Shown here piece by piece: positions 2,894-7,988 of a DNA stretch of 11,143 nt. Made by a program: the position numbers and the translations under genes. The notes below the pieces were generated by a model. That model was not told the DNA's origin, did no database searches, and was given only the letters and a program-made list of their open reading frames with translations. Within the stretch, counting starts at the first letter, position 1. Every line of letters starts with the position of its first letter. The stretch lies in the UHGV virus genome UHGV-0105484. One strand, written 5' to 3'. This DNA is from a virus.

Positions 2894-3232
2894 CTATTTC
2901 CCTGAATTTACGACGAAACTGTTCGAGCGGACTGAAGCATTCATGCTCATAACCTTCGCGGAGGTAGATAACCCGTTGTGTTTCCGGCTCCCAACGAATG
3001 ACTCTGACGGGCACTCCGTAGTGATCTTTGAACCAGCGGTTAACTTGTCGCAAAGGACTGTCTCCTTCTGCCGGTTGAAATCACCCACAGCCCACTCTGC
3101 AAAGCTGTGGGTTACAATTTCCCTGTCACCTGGTACATTCACTGCATAGCAATATTCCACCTTCGCTTTTCCACCCGGTAAAGGAAGCGCAATCAGTTGC
3201 GAGCGACGGTAGTGTGTTGTTAAACTGTTCAT
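2894..3232 (-). CDS. Hypothetical protein (uncertain ORF between cII-like and replication genes)
   Basis: 112-aa ORF whose ATG (3232-3230) overlaps the upstream stop (ATGA). Composition is not strongly protein-like and no recognisable motif; kept at low confidence. Confidence 0.3.
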
Positions 3233-3798
3233 GCGTTAGTTTCTCCACAACCAGAAGCAATCGACGCCACGACGCCCGGAGCTGCACACTCGCGGGCGTC
3301 ATTACTTTCTGAAATGCAAAAAATTTTGTAGACAAGTGCTGCATGCTCCTGCAGCTTCGAAATTGAGAGATACAGCTCGTCGTTAATTGCTGTCTTCTCA
3401 TGCGGTTCCACTACACCGTCTTCGATTGCTGAACGAATCTGTTTTGAATAACTGCCGATCTGTTCAATGACTTCCAGCAGACGCTGGTTAATATCGGCGT
3501 TGTCCACATCCTCGACGTCAGGAAGAGACACAAAGACGCCATTTGCAGACTGCGCCACAGCATCAGCAATGAAGTGAGTGCCACCAGCACGCTGTAAAAC
3601 CATTGCCCATCCCAGCGGGAAAATCTGATCGCCATCTGCACGAAGGCGGTTGAATAAAGCGTTTTCTGTTACATCGAGCCAGTCAGCCGCTTCAGCGTAA
3701 CCACCCGGCAACGCCGCGATAGTTTTTCTGACAGCTTTCACGTACCACTCAGGCTGTTTTTCTATTTTCCAGTGATGCTTACCCACGATTAGCCTCAT
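3229..3798 (-). CDS. CII-like phage regulatory protein
   Basis: 189-aa ORF immediately downstream of the cro-like gene on the same strand, the lambda cII position. ATG 3798 lacks an SD; an in-frame GTG 12 nt downstream is preceded by GAGG and may be the true start. Family assignment by position and general resemblance only. Confidence 0.5.
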
Positions 3799-3829: not shown

Positions 3830-4030
3830 CTAATCTTTCGGATAGATATCCGGTCTTAAGTCAGATTTCGTAATTGCACCTGACGTGCATTGCTCAAGTT
3901 TTTTAGCCAGCACAAAACTGGCTTTTTTATAGCCATTGAAAACCAGCCGTAAGTAGCCAGATGTTGAGCCAACTTTTCCGGCCAACTCGCCCTGCTGTTC
4001 TTTGGTTAAAGAGTCCCAATACGCTTTCAT
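3830..4030 (-). CDS. Cro-like HTH regulator (YdaS/Cro type)
   Basis: 66 aa from ATG 4030, with strong SD GGAGG 11 nt upstream. MKAYWDSLTKEQQGELAGKVGSTSGYLRLVFNGYKKASFVLAKKLEQCTSGAITKSDLRPD has an HTH pattern. Divergent from the cI-like gene. The track's longer 167-aa ORF is an upstream extension without support. Confidence 0.6.
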   Translation of the reverse strand: MKAYWDSLTKEQQGELAGKVGSTSGYLRLVFNGYKKASFVLAKKLEQCTSGAITKSDLRPDIYPKD

Positions 4031-4120
4031 ACAATATGTACCTCCGGTGTACATATTACATGATTGAAATGAACCTTCAAGATACTTGTACCTTAACGGT
4101 ACAAGAGTTTTAATTTCGTT
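4031..4120. promoter_or_regulatory. Immunity switch region: divergent promoters and palindromic operators between cro-like and cI-like genes
   Basis: Two dyad sites share a GTACC/GGTAC core: 4034-4056 (atatgtac-ctccggt-gtacatat) and 4085-4105 (cttgtacc-ttaac-ggtacaag). Minus-strand candidate promoter TTGAAG-16-TAATAT precedes cro. Plus-strand candidate TTGTAC-17-TTTAAT ends about 7 nt before the cI ATG, which has no SD, suggesting a leaderless cI transcript as at lambda pRM. Confidence 0.5.
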
Positions 4121-4795
4121 ATGAAAACAATCCATGACATCCGGCGGTCTAACGCCAGAAAACTGAGAGATGGTGTTGGCGGGAATTCTTCCTTTGCCAC
4201 TATGATTGATCGCGAGCCAACCCAGACCAGCAGGTTTATGGGAGATGGTGCTACTAAAAATATCGGTGACAGCATGGCACGACACATCGAAAAATGTTTC
4301 GACCTGCCTGTCGGATGGCTCGATCAAGAACACCAGACAACGAACATCACAAAAAAACCTGATGTTTCAATCACTAATAAACAAATCACATTAGTCCCTG
4401 TCATATCATGGGTACAGGCCGGAGCATGGAAAGAAGTTGGATATTCTGAGGTTGATTTGAGCACAGCAGAAACGTATCCCTGCCCTGTACCCTGTGGGGA
4501 AATGACTTATATCTTGCGGGTGATAGGTGATTCAATGATTGATGAGTACCGCCCGGGAGACATGATTTTTGTCGATCCTGAAGTACCTGCCTGCCACGGT
4601 GACGACGTTATTGCATTGATGCACGATACAGGTGAAACCACCTTCAAAAGGTTGATAGAAGATGGGACACAGCGTTATCTCAAAGCGTTAAACCCAAACT
4701 GGCCTGAGCCTTACATTAAGATCAACGGTAATTGCTCTATAATTGGTACAGTGATTTTCTCAGGAAAACCAAGAAGATACAAAATCAAAGCCTAA
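4121..4795 (+). CDS. CI-like prophage repressor, HTH plus S24 (LexA-like) autopeptidase domain
   Basis: 224 aa; N-terminal HTH region; candidate Ala-Gly cleavage site (VQAGAW); catalytic Ser in GDSM and Lys in FKRL. Divergently arranged with the cro-like gene. Confidence 0.85.
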   Translation: MKTIHDIRRSNARKLRDGVGGNSSFATMIDREPTQTSRFMGDGATKNIGDSMARHIEKCFDLPVGWLDQEHQTTNITKKPDVSITNKQITLVPVISWVQAGAWKEVGYSEVDLSTAETYPCPVPCGEMTYILRVIGDSMIDEYRPGDMIFVDPEVPACHGDDVIALMHDTGETTFKRLIEDGTQRYLKALNPNWPEPYIKINGNCSIIGTVIFSGKPRRYKIKA

Positions 4796-4807
4796 TCAAT
4801 GTTTATG

Positions 4808-4831
4808 AACCTGCTTCGGCAGGTTTTTTTA
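4808..4831 (+). terminator. Rho-independent terminator downstream of cI
   Basis: Stem aacctgc / gcaggtt with loop ttcg, followed by a run of 7 T (4824-4830), 13 nt after the cI stop. Confidence 0.6.
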
Positions 4832-4834
4832 TAC

Positions 4835-4862
4835 TTGACAATGTACCTTTGAGATACATAAT
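4835..4862 (+). promoter_or_regulatory. Candidate pL-like sigma70 promoter flanked by operator-like half-sites
   Basis: TTGACA (4835-4840), 16-bp spacer, cATAAT (4857-4862). TGTACC motifs at 4842-4847 and 4862-4867 match the operator half-site seen in the cI/cro intergenic region. Confidence 0.45.
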
Positions 4863-5029
4863 GTACCCAAGCGAAACAACGAACAGGCAGGACGCCCACG
4901 AAGTAGCCGCCTGGGGCATATGAAGTCCAGGATGATTCGTTAGCAACAAAAAAGCGCTCTAAAGGACGCTTCGCTCTTTGACAATCTGGTCCCCATCAAC
5001 AAGTAACTGATAACTTGAGGAGGTGTGAA

Positions 5030-5236
5030 ATGCACAAAACAGAACCAAAAATCGTCGCACCCGGATACACAAATGAGGAAATTTACGAGTGGATGGCAAA
5101 GAAGCTGGCAGCTATAAACCAGCTTCGTGAAGTGCTGTCTTATCGACAGGAAACAATAGACTCCTTAAAAAAACTGGATCAGGAAATCACGGTTTTATCA
5201 CAGGATGTTACTTTAGATATTGTGCAGACAAATTAG
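5030..5236 (+). CDS. Hypothetical small acidic protein (68 aa), first ORF of the pL-like operon
   Basis: ATG 5030 with strong SD GAGGAGG 7 nt upstream (the track's 5015 start is TTG). No recognisable domain; not arginine-rich, so not an N-like antiterminator. Confidence 0.45.
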   Translation: MHKTEPKIVAPGYTNEEIYEWMAKKLAAINQLREVLSYRQETIDSLKKLDQEITVLSQDVTLDIVQTN

Positions 5237-5642
5237 GATCCCATTCATTTTCGTCAAAATCATCAAAGTGATGAATTTGTGATCTCCAGTCTCGATAATC
5301 TAAAAATTTCTGGGCGGTTACGCTTATTTTATCAAGCGTGAGTTCATCCTGAATTGAAAGAAGAAGTTCATCAAATTTCATCTCATTAATCTGTTTTGGC
5401 ATCCAGTGATGCTTCATCAGAATAAGGTGAACCAGAGCTTTTTTCCCATTCAACTGATTATAGGGAGTGCCGAATTTCTTCCGGTGCTCATGTAAGACAA
5501 GGTCCAGAAGAGTAAGTAATGTTGCCCTTGATTCAACTTTGCTTATTTCGACTGATGACACTACCCCACTGATTTCAATGCCCCGATACTTTCCAACATT
5601 TTCACAGTGGGATTTGTACAGCGTATAGATATTACCGGACAT
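5208..5642 (-). CDS. Hypothetical protein (144 aa), AT-rich accessory gene convergent with the 68-aa ORF
   Basis: ATG 5642 with SD AAGGA about 7 nt upstream. Soluble, no recognised motif. AT-rich relative to flanks. Its 3' end overlaps the 68-aa ORF by 29 bp. Confidence 0.5.
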   Translation of the reverse strand: MSGNIYTLYKSHCENVGKYRGIEISGVVSSVEISKVESRATLLTLLDLVLHEHRKKFGTPYNQLNGKKALVHLILMKHHWMPKQINEMKFDELLLSIQDELTLDKISVTAQKFLDYRDWRSQIHHFDDFDENEWDPNLSAQYLK

Positions 5643-5657
5643 TTCTTTTCCTTTTGC

Positions 5658-5709
5658 GTTGTTGGGGATAACCAGATTAACCGAATCCTTGTTGTTGGGG
5701 AATAACCAG
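5658..5709. repeat. Two direct repeats (18/19 bp) upstream of the 144-aa gene
   Basis: gttgttggggataaccag (5658-5675) and gttgttggggaataaccag (5691-5709), identical except for one inserted A, 33 bp apart, just upstream of the minus-strand SD/ATG at 5642. Confidence 0.55.
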
Positions 5710-6059
5710 GTCCACCTCGCCTGATGTGGCTAAAAGCAGGCACATAACAGCTAAGTATTTTCAACCAGAGAGAATTCTTAGCGTTGTGGTGAATGCGGCT
5801 CAGCGCACGCGGGTTAAGGTTGAGGCTGACAGTCGACCTTCTGTGGATACCCACCCGCCTGGTGTGCAACCTTCGCCAGGCACCGGGAGGCACCCGGCAC
5901 CACAACTTTATGCTGTGTTTTTACAAAACAGAGAAGAGCATCACCGGACGACGGGCTCATAACCCAATCCATCCGGGCGGCTGCCACCGCAGGTGTTCTT
6001 CTCTATTTTGTGGAGAAACTAATCGGCCTTGCAGGGTCGATATGATGAGGAGCAGCAAA

Positions 6060-6422
6060 ATGGCTAGCGAACGCAGTACTGATGTGCAGGCATTTATCGG
6101 GGAGCTGGACGGCGGCGTATTTGAAACCAAAATCGGCGCAGTTCTCAGTGAAGTCGCTTCCGGTGTGATGAACACGAAAACCAAAGGTAAGGTCTCGCTC
6201 AACCTGGAAATCGAACCGTTTGATGAGAACCGTGTGAAAATCAAACACAAACTCTCATATGTTCGCCCGACTAACCGCGGGAAAATTTCCGAAGAAGACA
6301 CCACCGAAACGCCGATGTATGTCAATCGCGGTGGTCGCCTGACTATTCTGCAGGAAGACCAGGGACAATTACTGACTCTTGCCGGTGAACCTGACGGAAA
6401 ACTCCGCGCAGCAGGTCATTAA
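6060..6422 (+). CDS. yfdP: YfdP-like phage protein (120 aa)
   Basis: ATG 6060 with SD GAGGAG 8 nt upstream. Length and position immediately upstream of the yfdQ- and yfdR-like genes match the CPS-53 yfdP-yfdQ-yfdR order. The track's 209-aa ORF is a non-protein-like 5' extension. Confidence 0.55.
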   Translation: MASERSTDVQAFIGELDGGVFETKIGAVLSEVASGVMNTKTKGKVSLNLEIEPFDENRVKIKHKLSYVRPTNRGKISEEDTTETPMYVNRGGRLTILQEDQGQLLTLAGEPDGKLRAAGH

Positions 6423-7312: not shown

Positions 7313-7324
7313 TTTCATTACTGC

Positions 7325-7346
7325 AAATGCCCCTGCGGGGGCATTT
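7325..7346 (+). terminator. GC-rich hairpin between yfdQ-like and yfdR-like genes (possible weak terminator or attenuator)
   Basis: Perfect 9-bp stem aaatgcccc / ggggcattt with loop tgcg; only a short T tract follows, so termination efficiency is doubtful. Confidence 0.3.
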
Positions 7347-7439
7347 ATGGAAACGTAATTAACTCAATAATCGCCGGATGGTGAGGGCTTCCTTTTACCA
7401 GAATTCAGCGCGGTGCAGCGCATATACGTGGAGAACAAA

Positions 7440-7988
7440 ATGTCATTTATTAAAACTTTTTCCGGGAAGCATTTTTATTATGACAGGATAAATAAAGACG
7501 ACATCGTTATTAACGATATCGCGGTTTCTCTTTCAAATATCTGTCGCTTTGCAGGACATCTTTCACATTTCTACAGCGTCGCCCAACATGCAGTTCTTTG
7601 AAGCCAGCTGGTTCCGCAGGAATTTGCTTTTGAAGCATTAATGCATGATGCAACAGAAGCGTATTGCCAGGACATCCCCGCGCCACTGAAACGCCTTCTT
7701 CCTGACTATAAACGGATGGAAGAAAAAATAGACGCCGTAATCCGTGAGAAATACGGGTTACCCCCGGTTATGAGCACGCCCGTGAAATATGCCGATCTCA
7801 TCATGCTGGCAACCGAACGCCGCGATCTCGGGCTTGATGATGGCTCTTTCTGGCCTGTGCTGGAAGGTATCCCGGCAACAGAGATGTTCAACGTGATTCC
7901 ACTGGCACCGGGCCATGCCTACGGGATGTTTATGGAACGCTTTAAAGAGCTGCATAAGATACATAAACAATCCAGACAGCGAAATTAA
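7440..7988 (+). pseudogene. yfdR: YfdR-like HD-domain 5'-deoxynucleotidase interrupted by an in-frame TGA (codon 54, 7599-7601)
   Basis: ORFs 7413..7601 and 7641..7988 are in the same frame and together read MSFIKTFSGKHFYYD...FAGHLSHFYSVAQHAVL-[TGA]-SQLVPQEFAFEALMHDATEAY..., about 182 codons against about 178 aa for YfdR. The first fragment carries His residues and the second the HD dyad. Real ATG is 7440 (7413 is GTG). Confidence 0.65.

Follow-up and report, generated by a model that had tools for sequence, protein, structure and literature searches.

PasD1 and PasD2 of the enteropathogenic Escherichia coli (EPEC) strain E2348/69 were confirmed by Northern blotting, depend on Hfq for their stability, and have targets identified by the sequencing of ligated, interacting RNAs (RIL-seq) (PMC8550237). 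PasD is located in lambdoid prophages, and PasD and STnc100 were reported to be structural homologues (bioRxiv 10.64898/2026.05.13.724894). The PasD RNAs are the only members of this superfamily with direct evidence of being small RNAs (sRNAs); their relation to STnc100 is taken here from the report in that preprint. We describe a related RNA in an 11,143-nucleotide stretch of the virus genome UHGV-0105484 (one strand, 5' to 3'; hereafter the window). It lies in the gap at positions 5643-6059, which is 417 bp long, as a sequence-only reading of the window had given it, and separates the start of the minus-strand gene for a 144-amino-acid (aa) protein (5642) from the ATG of yfdP (6060). This gap constitutes the leader of the PL (early-left) operon in a lambdoid prophage of the SfV/SfIV/e14 type, and its structured core (123 nt, 5784-5906, plus strand) is a divergent member, or subfamily, of the STnc100/PasD prophage RNA superfamily. 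A structured 5' untranslated region (UTR) or small RNA had been among the candidates of the sequence-only reading, and the gap indeed carries a covarying, pseudoknotted, STnc100/PasD-related RNA followed by a conserved long leader hairpin.

The Rfam scan proposed in that reading returned no match in the window at the gathering threshold. In a permissive Rfam scan, STnc100 (RF02076) matched the plus strand at 5785-5904 with 35.6 bits and an E value of 6.2e-6, covering model positions 31-147 of 206. The curated gathering cut-off of this family is 47 bits, and the intact relatives also scored below it (SfIV, 38.4 bits; SfV, 39.5 bits; phiES15, 40.6 bits; ST64B, 35.1 bits). SfIV, SfV, and phiES15 matched the full model (positions 1-206, including the 3' terminator) with their 38.4-40.6 bits, and the match was significant across the window and its relatives (E values of 6e-6 to 4e-4). 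The 20-mer CCGGGAGGCACCCGGCACCA, which spans the 3' strands of helices P5 and P1 and is identical between the window and the main family, was found together with the motif UGGUGAAU in at least 120 IMG/VR loci; the scan with this 20-mer yielded 112 distinct contexts in 42 clusters. A model built here from the alignment (model R1) gave a single strong match of 77 bits in the window, which is itself among the 38 training sequences of the model. More divergent copies outside its training set were also matched by model R1 at the corresponding position, with 24.7 bits for those of mEp460 and Stx2c phages and 29.4 bits for that of a Klebsiella phage. In mEp460 (L128 4813-4946) and a Stx2c phage (L129 4813-4946), this more divergent element precedes the same terminator and long hairpin, and its P2 reads GCGCA..UGCGC and its P5 reads CCGG-AGAUCAGCA-CCGG.

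The core folds into a closing helix, three hairpins, and a pseudoknot. P1 pairs 5784-5791 with 5898-5905 and corresponds in the family to NNNUGGUG...CACCANNN, the outer pairs of which covary. It is followed in the family by AAU and by the P2 hairpin, the loop of which reads UNNGC and which carries a single-base bulge; in the window, P2 pairs 5795-5799 with 5805-5810 and has the loop TCAGC and the bulged A5807. A three-pair helix, GGG 5811-5813 with CCC 5854-5856 (the base of P3), closes a variable middle. P4 (5857-5864 with 5874-5881) carries in its loop the segment CAACCTT (5867-5873), which forms the pseudoknot with AAGGTTG (5816-5822). The last hairpin is the invariant P5, CCGGG-AGGCA-CCCGG, which pairs 5883-5887 with 5893-5897 and stacks on P1. 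The two hairpins that had been noticed from the letters are thus helices of one larger fold: gcctgg..ccaggc at 5857-5881 is P4, and ccggg..cccgg is P5, a real helix that had been placed one base off. The other features described there were likewise located at, or at most one base away from, the positions given for them, and the GC-rich stretch was recovered with a peak GC content of 0.65 in 5800-5899, compared with 0.34-0.45 in the flanking genes. The minimum free energy of the core was -54.4 kcal/mol (z -2.4). ARAGORN found no tRNA or tmRNA genes in the window.

Covariation across the relatives, which had been suggested as a check, supported this fold, as both the nested helices and the pseudoknot exceeded their controls. 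In 38 representative sequences, 96.7% of the cells at nested pairs were paired, compared with 88.2% in shuffles, and the covariation score of these pairs was 0.242, compared with 0.084 in shuffles; neither value was reached by any of 500 shuffles. Controls with slid partners scored 0.014-0.145, and P1, P2, the base of P3, and P5 covaried above both types of control. P2 has been rebuilt by compensatory change, being GCGGC/GC-A-CGC in the window subfamily and CCCCC/GG-N-GGG in the main family, a swap in which three pairs account for seven or eight double changes. The P4 loop is complementary to what comes right after P2, and the sequence of this pseudoknot differs between clusters without loss of the pairing. 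Across 37 clusters, 19 distinct helices of at least 5 Watson-Crick pairs were counted, and the observed total was not reached in any of 5000 loop permutations. Near-invariant nucleotides lie within the pseudoknotted fold, and the core is conserved to a greater extent than the flanking spacer.

The window subfamily shares with STnc100 the closing helix UGGUG/CACCA, the AAU junction between P1 and P2, P2 with its UNNGC loop, the P4 hairpin with the pseudoknot loop, the identical P5 and, in the intact relatives, the 3' intrinsic terminator. It differs in its scores of 35-41 bits, below the cut-off of 47, in the fully swapped P2 stem, and in a different and longer middle. The genomic setting differs as well. 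The late regions of prophages are where STnc100 proper is found, close to Q, stx, nanS-p, or holin genes, and a promoter frequently abuts its P1; the PasD genes adjoin Q and lpxR in late regions and are expressed in lysogens. In contrast to the main-family copies, which lie downstream of Q or stx2B and upstream of nanS-p or holin genes, the window copy is located between cI/PL and the yfdP..int genes, in the early-left operon, and has apparently no promoter of its own and no terminator. No late-region copy was found in SfV. In two loci (L032 ~1728-2160 and L069 ~4382-4810), two main-family copies stand in tandem after tR', each with its own terminator; the late regions of both loci carry a lambda-type PR' with its AACGATGGG pause motif.

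The terminator is missing from the window because a 51-bp deletion has excised it. Alignments with SfIV, SfV, e14, ST64B, and phiES15 placed the deletion junction on the plus strand at 5917/5918, and exactly 51 bp are absent between these two positions when the window is compared with SfIV. The deleted piece (TGTAGTCCTGGAGGTACCAGTTTGTACCCTTGCTTCCGGCTGGTACCGTCC) contains a GC-rich hairpin (GGTACCAG...CTGGTACC), which together with the remaining TTTTT constitutes an intrinsic terminator; its T-tract is still present at 5918-5922. The 3' Rho-independent terminator of STnc100 (model positions ~170-206) is accordingly lost in the window and present in the early-left relatives examined. The palindrome TGTTTT-TAC-AAAACA at 5915-5929, which had been listed as a feature of its own, does exist, but as a by-product of the deletion junction and the foot of the long hairpin. 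Its significance as the mark of a lost terminator, the family relationship, and the pseudoknot were not part of the sequence-only reading.

A terminator was found directly after the RNA in every relative examined. ST64B, phiES15, L017/L061, L093, and Kp4866-6 have an unrelated hairpin with a T-tract at the same place, so that at least five unrelated terminator sequences occupy this position in early-left members. It is therefore the function of the terminator that is conserved, and not its sequence. Across the family, a terminator-like hairpin was present within 200 nt in 109 of 111 contexts, and most of these hairpins start 21-37 nt past the conserved 3' motif of P5 and P1. The deleted form itself was not recovered elsewhere. 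When an 85-base junction query was used, all 12 of the E. coli complete-genome matches listed aligned as two pieces that together span 136 bp. None of the matches listed from the 1,326 E. coli genomes with a match to most of the junction stretch had the deleted form, and the exact junction was absent from IMG/VR, from GTDB representative genomes, and from the 76 IMG/VR loci that carry the 144-aa gene.

Right before the terminator, the early-left members have in common the single-stranded motif UGCUGUGUGUAGUC(U)U, which reads (T)TGCTGTGTGTAGTC(T)T in the DNA of the relatives. The deletion has cut this motif in the window, where CTTTATGCTGTG remains at 5906-5917 on the plus strand. The motif is kept in e14, ST64B, phiES15, Kp4866-6, L017, and L072 despite their differing terminators, and in L017 and L072 also despite an extra insert of ~80 nt. 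Judged from this conservation, it is a candidate seed or recognition segment.

Open reading frame (ORF) listing and family scans with Pfam and PHROG identified the window as the immunity and early-left region of a lambdoid phage. A CII-like gene (3229-3798) and a cro-type gene (~3830-4030) lie on the minus strand, followed on the plus strand by cI (4121-4795, with a Peptidase_S24 domain) and a terminator at 4807-4826. The near-consensus PL promoter (TTGACA-16-CATAAT, plus strand, 4835-4862) scored 11/12 in the promoter scan, and PL together with overlapping operator repeats of the OL type (ATGTACC..) occupies 4835-4878. Repeats of the same type (TGTACC..) recur in the cro-cI intergenic region at 4027-4105 (families D1, D4, D8, and I10 of the repeat scan), and the cI operators are the TGTACC..GGTACA sites at 4027-4105 and 4840-4878. 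Downstream of PL, a 73-aa ORF (5015-5236, plus strand) is followed by the 144-aa ORF (5208-5642, minus strand; start codon CAT at 5640-5642; PHROG 5286, function unknown) and, after the gap, by yfdP (6060-6422, plus strand; ATG at 6060-6062), which matches PHROG 204 from its first residue. Then follow yfdQ (DUF2303), a yfdR homologue, xis, and int. The remainder of the prophage had been called tightly packed, which is only roughly correct, as the window has other gaps (4796-5014 and 7313-7439). The order cI, OL/PL, small genes, element, and early-left genes is common to the window, SfIV, SfV, e14, ST64B, and phiES15. The same order without the plus-strand small genes was found in mEp460, where PL was read by eye from the sequence. 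As the annotation of mEp460 has no plus-strand gene between cI and its yfdP homologue, the operon of mEp460 and the Stx2c phage would open with a leader of ~630 nt if PL directly follows cI.

The promoter scan revealed no sigma-70 promoter on either strand of 5643-5790, and no convincing -35/-10 pair, including one for the 144-aa gene, was seen by eye on either strand. The 5' flanks of the element are not conserved across the early-left members. In e14, Reg-Seq detected no constitutive start sites upstream of ymfH (PMC12133099), and a single iModulon groups ymfH, xisE, and intE with ymfJ as co-regulated genes. From these observations, we infer that the element is made from PL on induction; the transcription that crosses the gap probably originates at PL (4835-4862).

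The sequence that follows the core also belongs to the conserved module. A hairpin with a stem of ~25 bp (5918-5942 with 5992-6016, plus strand) extends over 5918-6016 and encloses two small hairpins; its 5' arm begins with the T-tract of the terminator. The segment 5907-6075 folds at -62 kcal/mol (z -4.18), which was not matched by any of 200 shuffles. Of the 38 pairs predicted by RNAalifold, 5 showed compensatory double changes, and the hairpin is kept in fourteen relatives. It is found after the terminator in the SfV/e14/ST64B/mEp460/Kp4866-6 group and stays with the RNA and the terminator where the downstream gene differs (xisE in e14; L120; L123). This hairpin is therefore part of the RNA module and not of yfdP. 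Between it and yfdP, a short hairpin (6022-6029 with 6034-6041) and the yfdP ribosome-binding site GAGGAG (6047-6052) are located on the plus strand. Comparable cases in lambda are the RNase III hairpin of the N leader and sib/tI retroregulation. The hairpin of this module likewise is a long, near-perfect hairpin of a PL transcript, would be complete only when a terminator is read through, and lies near a ribosome-binding site, but it is unrelated in sequence, and its cleavage by RNase III is a prediction from the fold; it is a plausible candidate for an RNase III or other processing site.

With a little more than even confidence, we lean towards the following reading, which is modelled on PasD: the element would be a PL-transcribed, terminator-released sRNA of the Hfq type that also serves as a gate on the early-left genes, and the window would hold a terminator-less copy that is now the 5' UTR of yfdP. 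In the intact phages, the element, presumably without a promoter of its own, would be transcribed from PL once cI is inactivated. Most polymerases would stop at the terminator and release a structured RNA of ~150-215 nt that ends in a stem and a U-tail. The released RNA may act in trans, as PasD does and as was suggested for STnc100, and the motif before the terminator would be its pairing segment. The same terminator would limit how much transcription reaches the early-left genes (yfdP to int), and transcripts that read through it would form, in front of the ribosome-binding site of yfdP, the long hairpin, which is probably a processing site of the RNase III type. No discrete sRNA is expected from the window; since it has lost the gate and a portion of the presumed pairing motif, the fold would simply be carried along in the 5' UTR of yfdP. 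A comparable arrangement is that of DicF, a 53-nt RNA of simple structure in the dicB operon of the defective lambdoid prophage Qin, which is an sRNA within a repressor-controlled early operon, derives from the operon transcript and not from its own promoter, and lies upstream of a kil/dicB-type gene. The likeness is one of logic only, as the sequences are unrelated; the phiES15 copy of the element lies just upstream of kil and beside a DicA-type repressor.

Several observations weigh against this reading. The STnc100 scores of the window (35.6 bits) and of the intact relatives all lie below the Rfam curated cut-off of 47 bits. The motif UGCUGUGUG is missing from mEp460 and L093, and no target complementary to UGCUGUGUGUAGUC was found in the window or in SfV other than the opposite strand of the element itself. 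The co-regulation within the e14 iModulon implies read-through of the terminator at useful rates, which an sRNA does not explain. Moreover, the best-conserved part of the element is the folded core with its pseudoknot and not a single-stranded seed, which is atypical for a base-pairing sRNA; this conservation suggests a binding partner, for example, a ligand, RNA polymerase, or another protein.

RNA polymerase is the partner of the putL and putR RNAs in the alternative that comes closest. Antitermination of the put type is factor-independent and depends on the beta' zinc-binding domain. Like these sites of HK022, the element is a structured RNA in the early operon of a lambdoid phage without N and lies between promoter and terminators: PL is at 4835-4862, the element at 5784-5906, the terminator directly after it in the relatives, and an N-like ORF was not found. 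By analogy, it is conceivable, if unlikely, that the element is a cis-acting antiterminator, the core of which would bind its own polymerase and allow it to pass the next and later terminators, so that early-left genes (xis, int, kil, and others) would be expressed without an N protein. The STnc100/PasD fold would then be a polymerase- or factor-binding module at lambdoid antitermination checkpoints and not primarily a base-pairing sRNA, a proposition to which we give little credence. Equally tentative is its corollary that the early-left subfamily would represent a second, structurally unrelated put-like class, used by N-less phages of the SfV/e14 type for read-through to xis, int, and the remaining early-left genes.

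The position of the element fits such a function, as it follows PL, directly precedes the conserved terminator ahead of all early-left genes, and thereby takes the place of nutL or putL in an operon with no recognizable N. No N-like protein was found among the ORFs of the window, including those between PL and the element, and none is annotated in SfV. The 73-aa ORF, SfV orf33, and e14 YmfJ were considered as N-like proteins and rejected, as they are mutually unrelated and not arginine-rich. The conservation of the core and not of the flanking spacer, the narrow spacing of mostly 21-37 nt between core and terminator, and the co-induction of e14 xisE and intE with genes upstream of the terminator also agree with action on the polymerase. 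The same applies to the position of the main-family copies: between Q/PR'/tR' and the lysis genes, they occupy the second point at which antitermination is controlled. However, put is a two-stem RNA of ~70 nt, and no homology between it and the window element was detected: neither STnc100 in HK022 nor model R1 in the HK022 immunity region gave a match at E values up to 1, and a resemblance of 14 nt (CGGGUUnAGGnUGA) was seen by eye only. The late-region relatives, which are active in lysogens, accumulate as discrete terminated RNAs on the PasD Northern blots. Self-antiterminating copies at these sites would drive the lysis genes in lysogens, which counts against antitermination by the element, as does the fact that SfV has no second copy in its PR operon.

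The PL leader upstream of the 73-aa ORF has features of its own. A hairpin at 4911-4932 (~1812-1833 in the e14 record L007), in the part of the leader common to the window, SfV, and e14, is kept by compensatory changes, with CCUGG-GGCAUAUGAAGU-CCAGG in the window and CCCGGU-ACGUACGAAG-ACCGGG in e14; it could be a nut/boxB-like site. A boxA-like sequence, CGCTCTTTGACAA, is located at 4973-4985 (the boxA sequences of rrn and lambda are UGCUCUUUAACAA and CGCUCUUA, respectively) and is directly followed by an inverted copy of the repeats of the gap described below. This boxA-like sequence is not present in SfV and e14, which have the same PL. On the minus strand, a strong intrinsic terminator (a stem with TTTTGTTGCTA) was found at 4951-4972, 236 nt past the end of the 144-aa gene. 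A transcript of the 144-aa gene would therefore run antisense over the entire 73-aa ORF.

A further alternative places the function of the gap in its direct repeats. As a pair of regulator-binding sites for the divergent 144-aa gene, for yfdP, or for both, they would be the essential feature and the GC-rich part would be incidental, which we consider quite unlikely. The two repeats, present at 5658-5709 as had been reported, are near-identical and not perfect, since one A is inserted: repeat R1 (GTTGTTGGGGATAACCAG, 18 nt) is at 5658-5675 and repeat R2 (GTTGTTGGGGAATAACCAG, 19 nt) at 5691-5709, and their starts are 33 bp, or three helical turns, apart. A gapless scan detected the first copy only, with 0.01 matches expected by chance, and we estimate that ~0.02 exact 11-mer repeats would be expected within 417 bp. 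An inverted partner (AATCTGGTCCCCATCAACAAG) lies 675 bp away at 4983-5003, just upstream of the 73-aa ORF, and was recorded as two pairings, one of 20 nt that is 75% complementary to 5659-5678 (I7) and one of 14 nt that is 93% complementary to 5688-5701 (I12). The three copies therefore bracket the pair of 73-aa and 144-aa genes. The repeats are nearly always kept with the 144-aa gene: among the 76 IMG/VR loci with this gene that could be checked, 73 had both direct repeats and 69 had the inverted partner.

These regularities are in favour of this alternative. Against it, SfV, e14, ST64B, phiES15, and mEp460 keep the RNA, the terminator, and the long hairpin without the repeats, in place of which SfV, e14, ST64B, and phiES15 have other modules. 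Repeat R2 varies (CCAG>CTAG) in 27 of the 76 loci, and the covariation and the pseudoknot show that the GC-rich part is not incidental. The repeats were also rejected as cI operators, which are the TGTACC..GGTACA sites elsewhere in the window. They occur only in phages with the 144-aa gene, between its start codon and the conserved RNA module, and on this arrangement they appear to be a separate feature that belongs to the minus-strand 144-aa gene module and lies in the 5' region of that gene. The earlier suggestion of a pair of regulator-binding sites is therefore tenable for these two repeats only, which could be a pair of sites bound by a protein or else an element in the 5' UTR of the 144-aa gene. 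In RNA, the copies could pair with each other, either between the two UTRs (5' and 3') of the minus-strand mRNA or as a long-range helix in the PL transcript; their sequence is nearly the same in all relatives. The 144-aa gene was 100% identical in all 80 loci fetched, which leaves no divergent homologues to show co-variation with the repeats. A function of the repeats alone can hold beside the terminator-released sRNA. Between the repeats and the core, a block at 5710-5783 (plus strand) is common to the window, SfV, e14, and, in part, phiES15 according to the alignment, and it contains a hairpin (GCTAAG 5750-5755 with CTTAGC 5777-5782) that adjoins P1.

It is also improbable that the element is a signal-responsive attenuator, with the core as an aptamer or nut-like dock for a ligand or a phage or host protein that would decide termination next to it. 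The architecture resembles that of a riboswitch, as a pseudoknotted fold with near-invariant nucleotides is closed by P1 and followed by a terminator and then by genes. In addition, another local pairing is available to the 5' strand of the pseudoknot. The segment 5816-5823 also pairs with 5833-5840 in an 8-bp hairpin, which is the minimum-free-energy fold, and equivalent alternatives are present in L017 (AGACUG/CAGUCU) and phiES15 (GAAGG/CCUUU). These predicted pairings hint that the early-left subfamily, and only this subfamily, has two folds that exclude each other. On the other hand, the spacer between the terminator and P1 is variable, and no competing pairing between core and terminator is conserved across the clusters, where only the STnc100-type terminator resembles P2; riboswitch-style competition of this kind is thus not general. 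Rfam returned no riboswitch matches, and the heterogeneity of the downstream genes (yfdP, kil, xisE, nanS-p, and holins) argues against a metabolite logic.

That the leader encodes protein, as a decayed gene or a longer YfdP, is hardly credible. The frame in phase with yfdP (5793-6422; SfIV_34, and e14 ymfH over the same DNA) is open through the entire leader in the window, SfIV, SfV, and ST64B, the 51-bp deletion is a multiple of three, and database records annotate coding sequences (CDSs) over the leader. However, the 89-codon extension at 5793-6059 matches no Pfam or PHROG family, as expected from the earlier remark that the ORFs of the gap are not protein-like, and it is not conserved as protein in ST64B, where similarity to Sb37 starts exactly at the yfdP ATG even though the upstream DNA is ~85% identical. 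The relatives differ by indels of 1 nt and 20 nt, which are not codon-sized; the frame closes after two codons in e14 and inside the RNA element in mEp460; and the substitutions are compensatory in the RNA helices. The proposal of a decayed gene remnant, which had also been put forward, was therefore abandoned, since no coding homology, framed or frameshifted, was found. The annotated CDSs that cover the RNA element, the terminator, and the long hairpin, namely, e14 ymfH (L007 2576-2887), SfIV_34/35 (L001), and mEp460_036/037 (L128), are probably spurious, given the missing family matches, the start of the ST64B similarity at the yfdP ATG, and the indels that are not codon-sized. If so, ymfH of K-12 would be an RNA element.

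Some observations concern other parts of these genomes. The yfdR homologue of the window (7440-7988), a member of the deoxyribonucleoside 5'-monophosphate phosphatase family, is interrupted by an in-frame TGA at 7599-7601, where a relative has Cys (..HAVLCSQLV..); the resulting ORFs are at 7413/7440-7601 and 7641-7988. The 51-bp deletion and this nonsense codon suggest a prophage in early decay. In the yfdQ-yfdR intergenic region, a weak match to model R1 (14-15 bits, E ~0.06-0.1) occurs at the same position in three phages, directly after a terminator (GCCCCTGCGGGGGC; window 7318-7422; L130 23254-23358; L129 6401-6505), and is probably due to chance. The PR operons of SfV, mEp460, a Stx2c phage, and ST64B carry isrK RNA genes (L130 27603-27791; L128 2280-2468; L004 21-97), each with a neighbouring gene for a C4 antisense RNA, apart from the ST64B stretch that was examined. 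No isrK was detected in the window by the Rfam scan at the gathering threshold.

The gap is widespread, as 2,781 of 5,426 complete E. coli genomes, or about half, had a match to part of it and 1,322 to most of it. The family itself is already known from Rfam (RF02076) and from the 2026 Pas preprint. Within the literature covered, the early-left subfamily, the pseudoknot with the compensatory change of P2, and the coupling of the RNA to a terminator and a long hairpin are undescribed. This subfamily has been missed by the Rfam cut-off and mis-annotated as protein, and recognizing it leads to a corrected annotation for a gene of K-12. The window copy is a damaged allele and as such the natural terminator-deleted counterpart to the intact copies. 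Should the RNA prove to be cis-acting, it would represent a new class among RNA antiterminators, and put-like action would explain the conservation of the core, the positions at antitermination checkpoints, and the induction of the early-left genes of e14. The element provides an experimental handle on how lambdoid phages without N pass the terminator before xis and int, which bears on the stability of their prophages.

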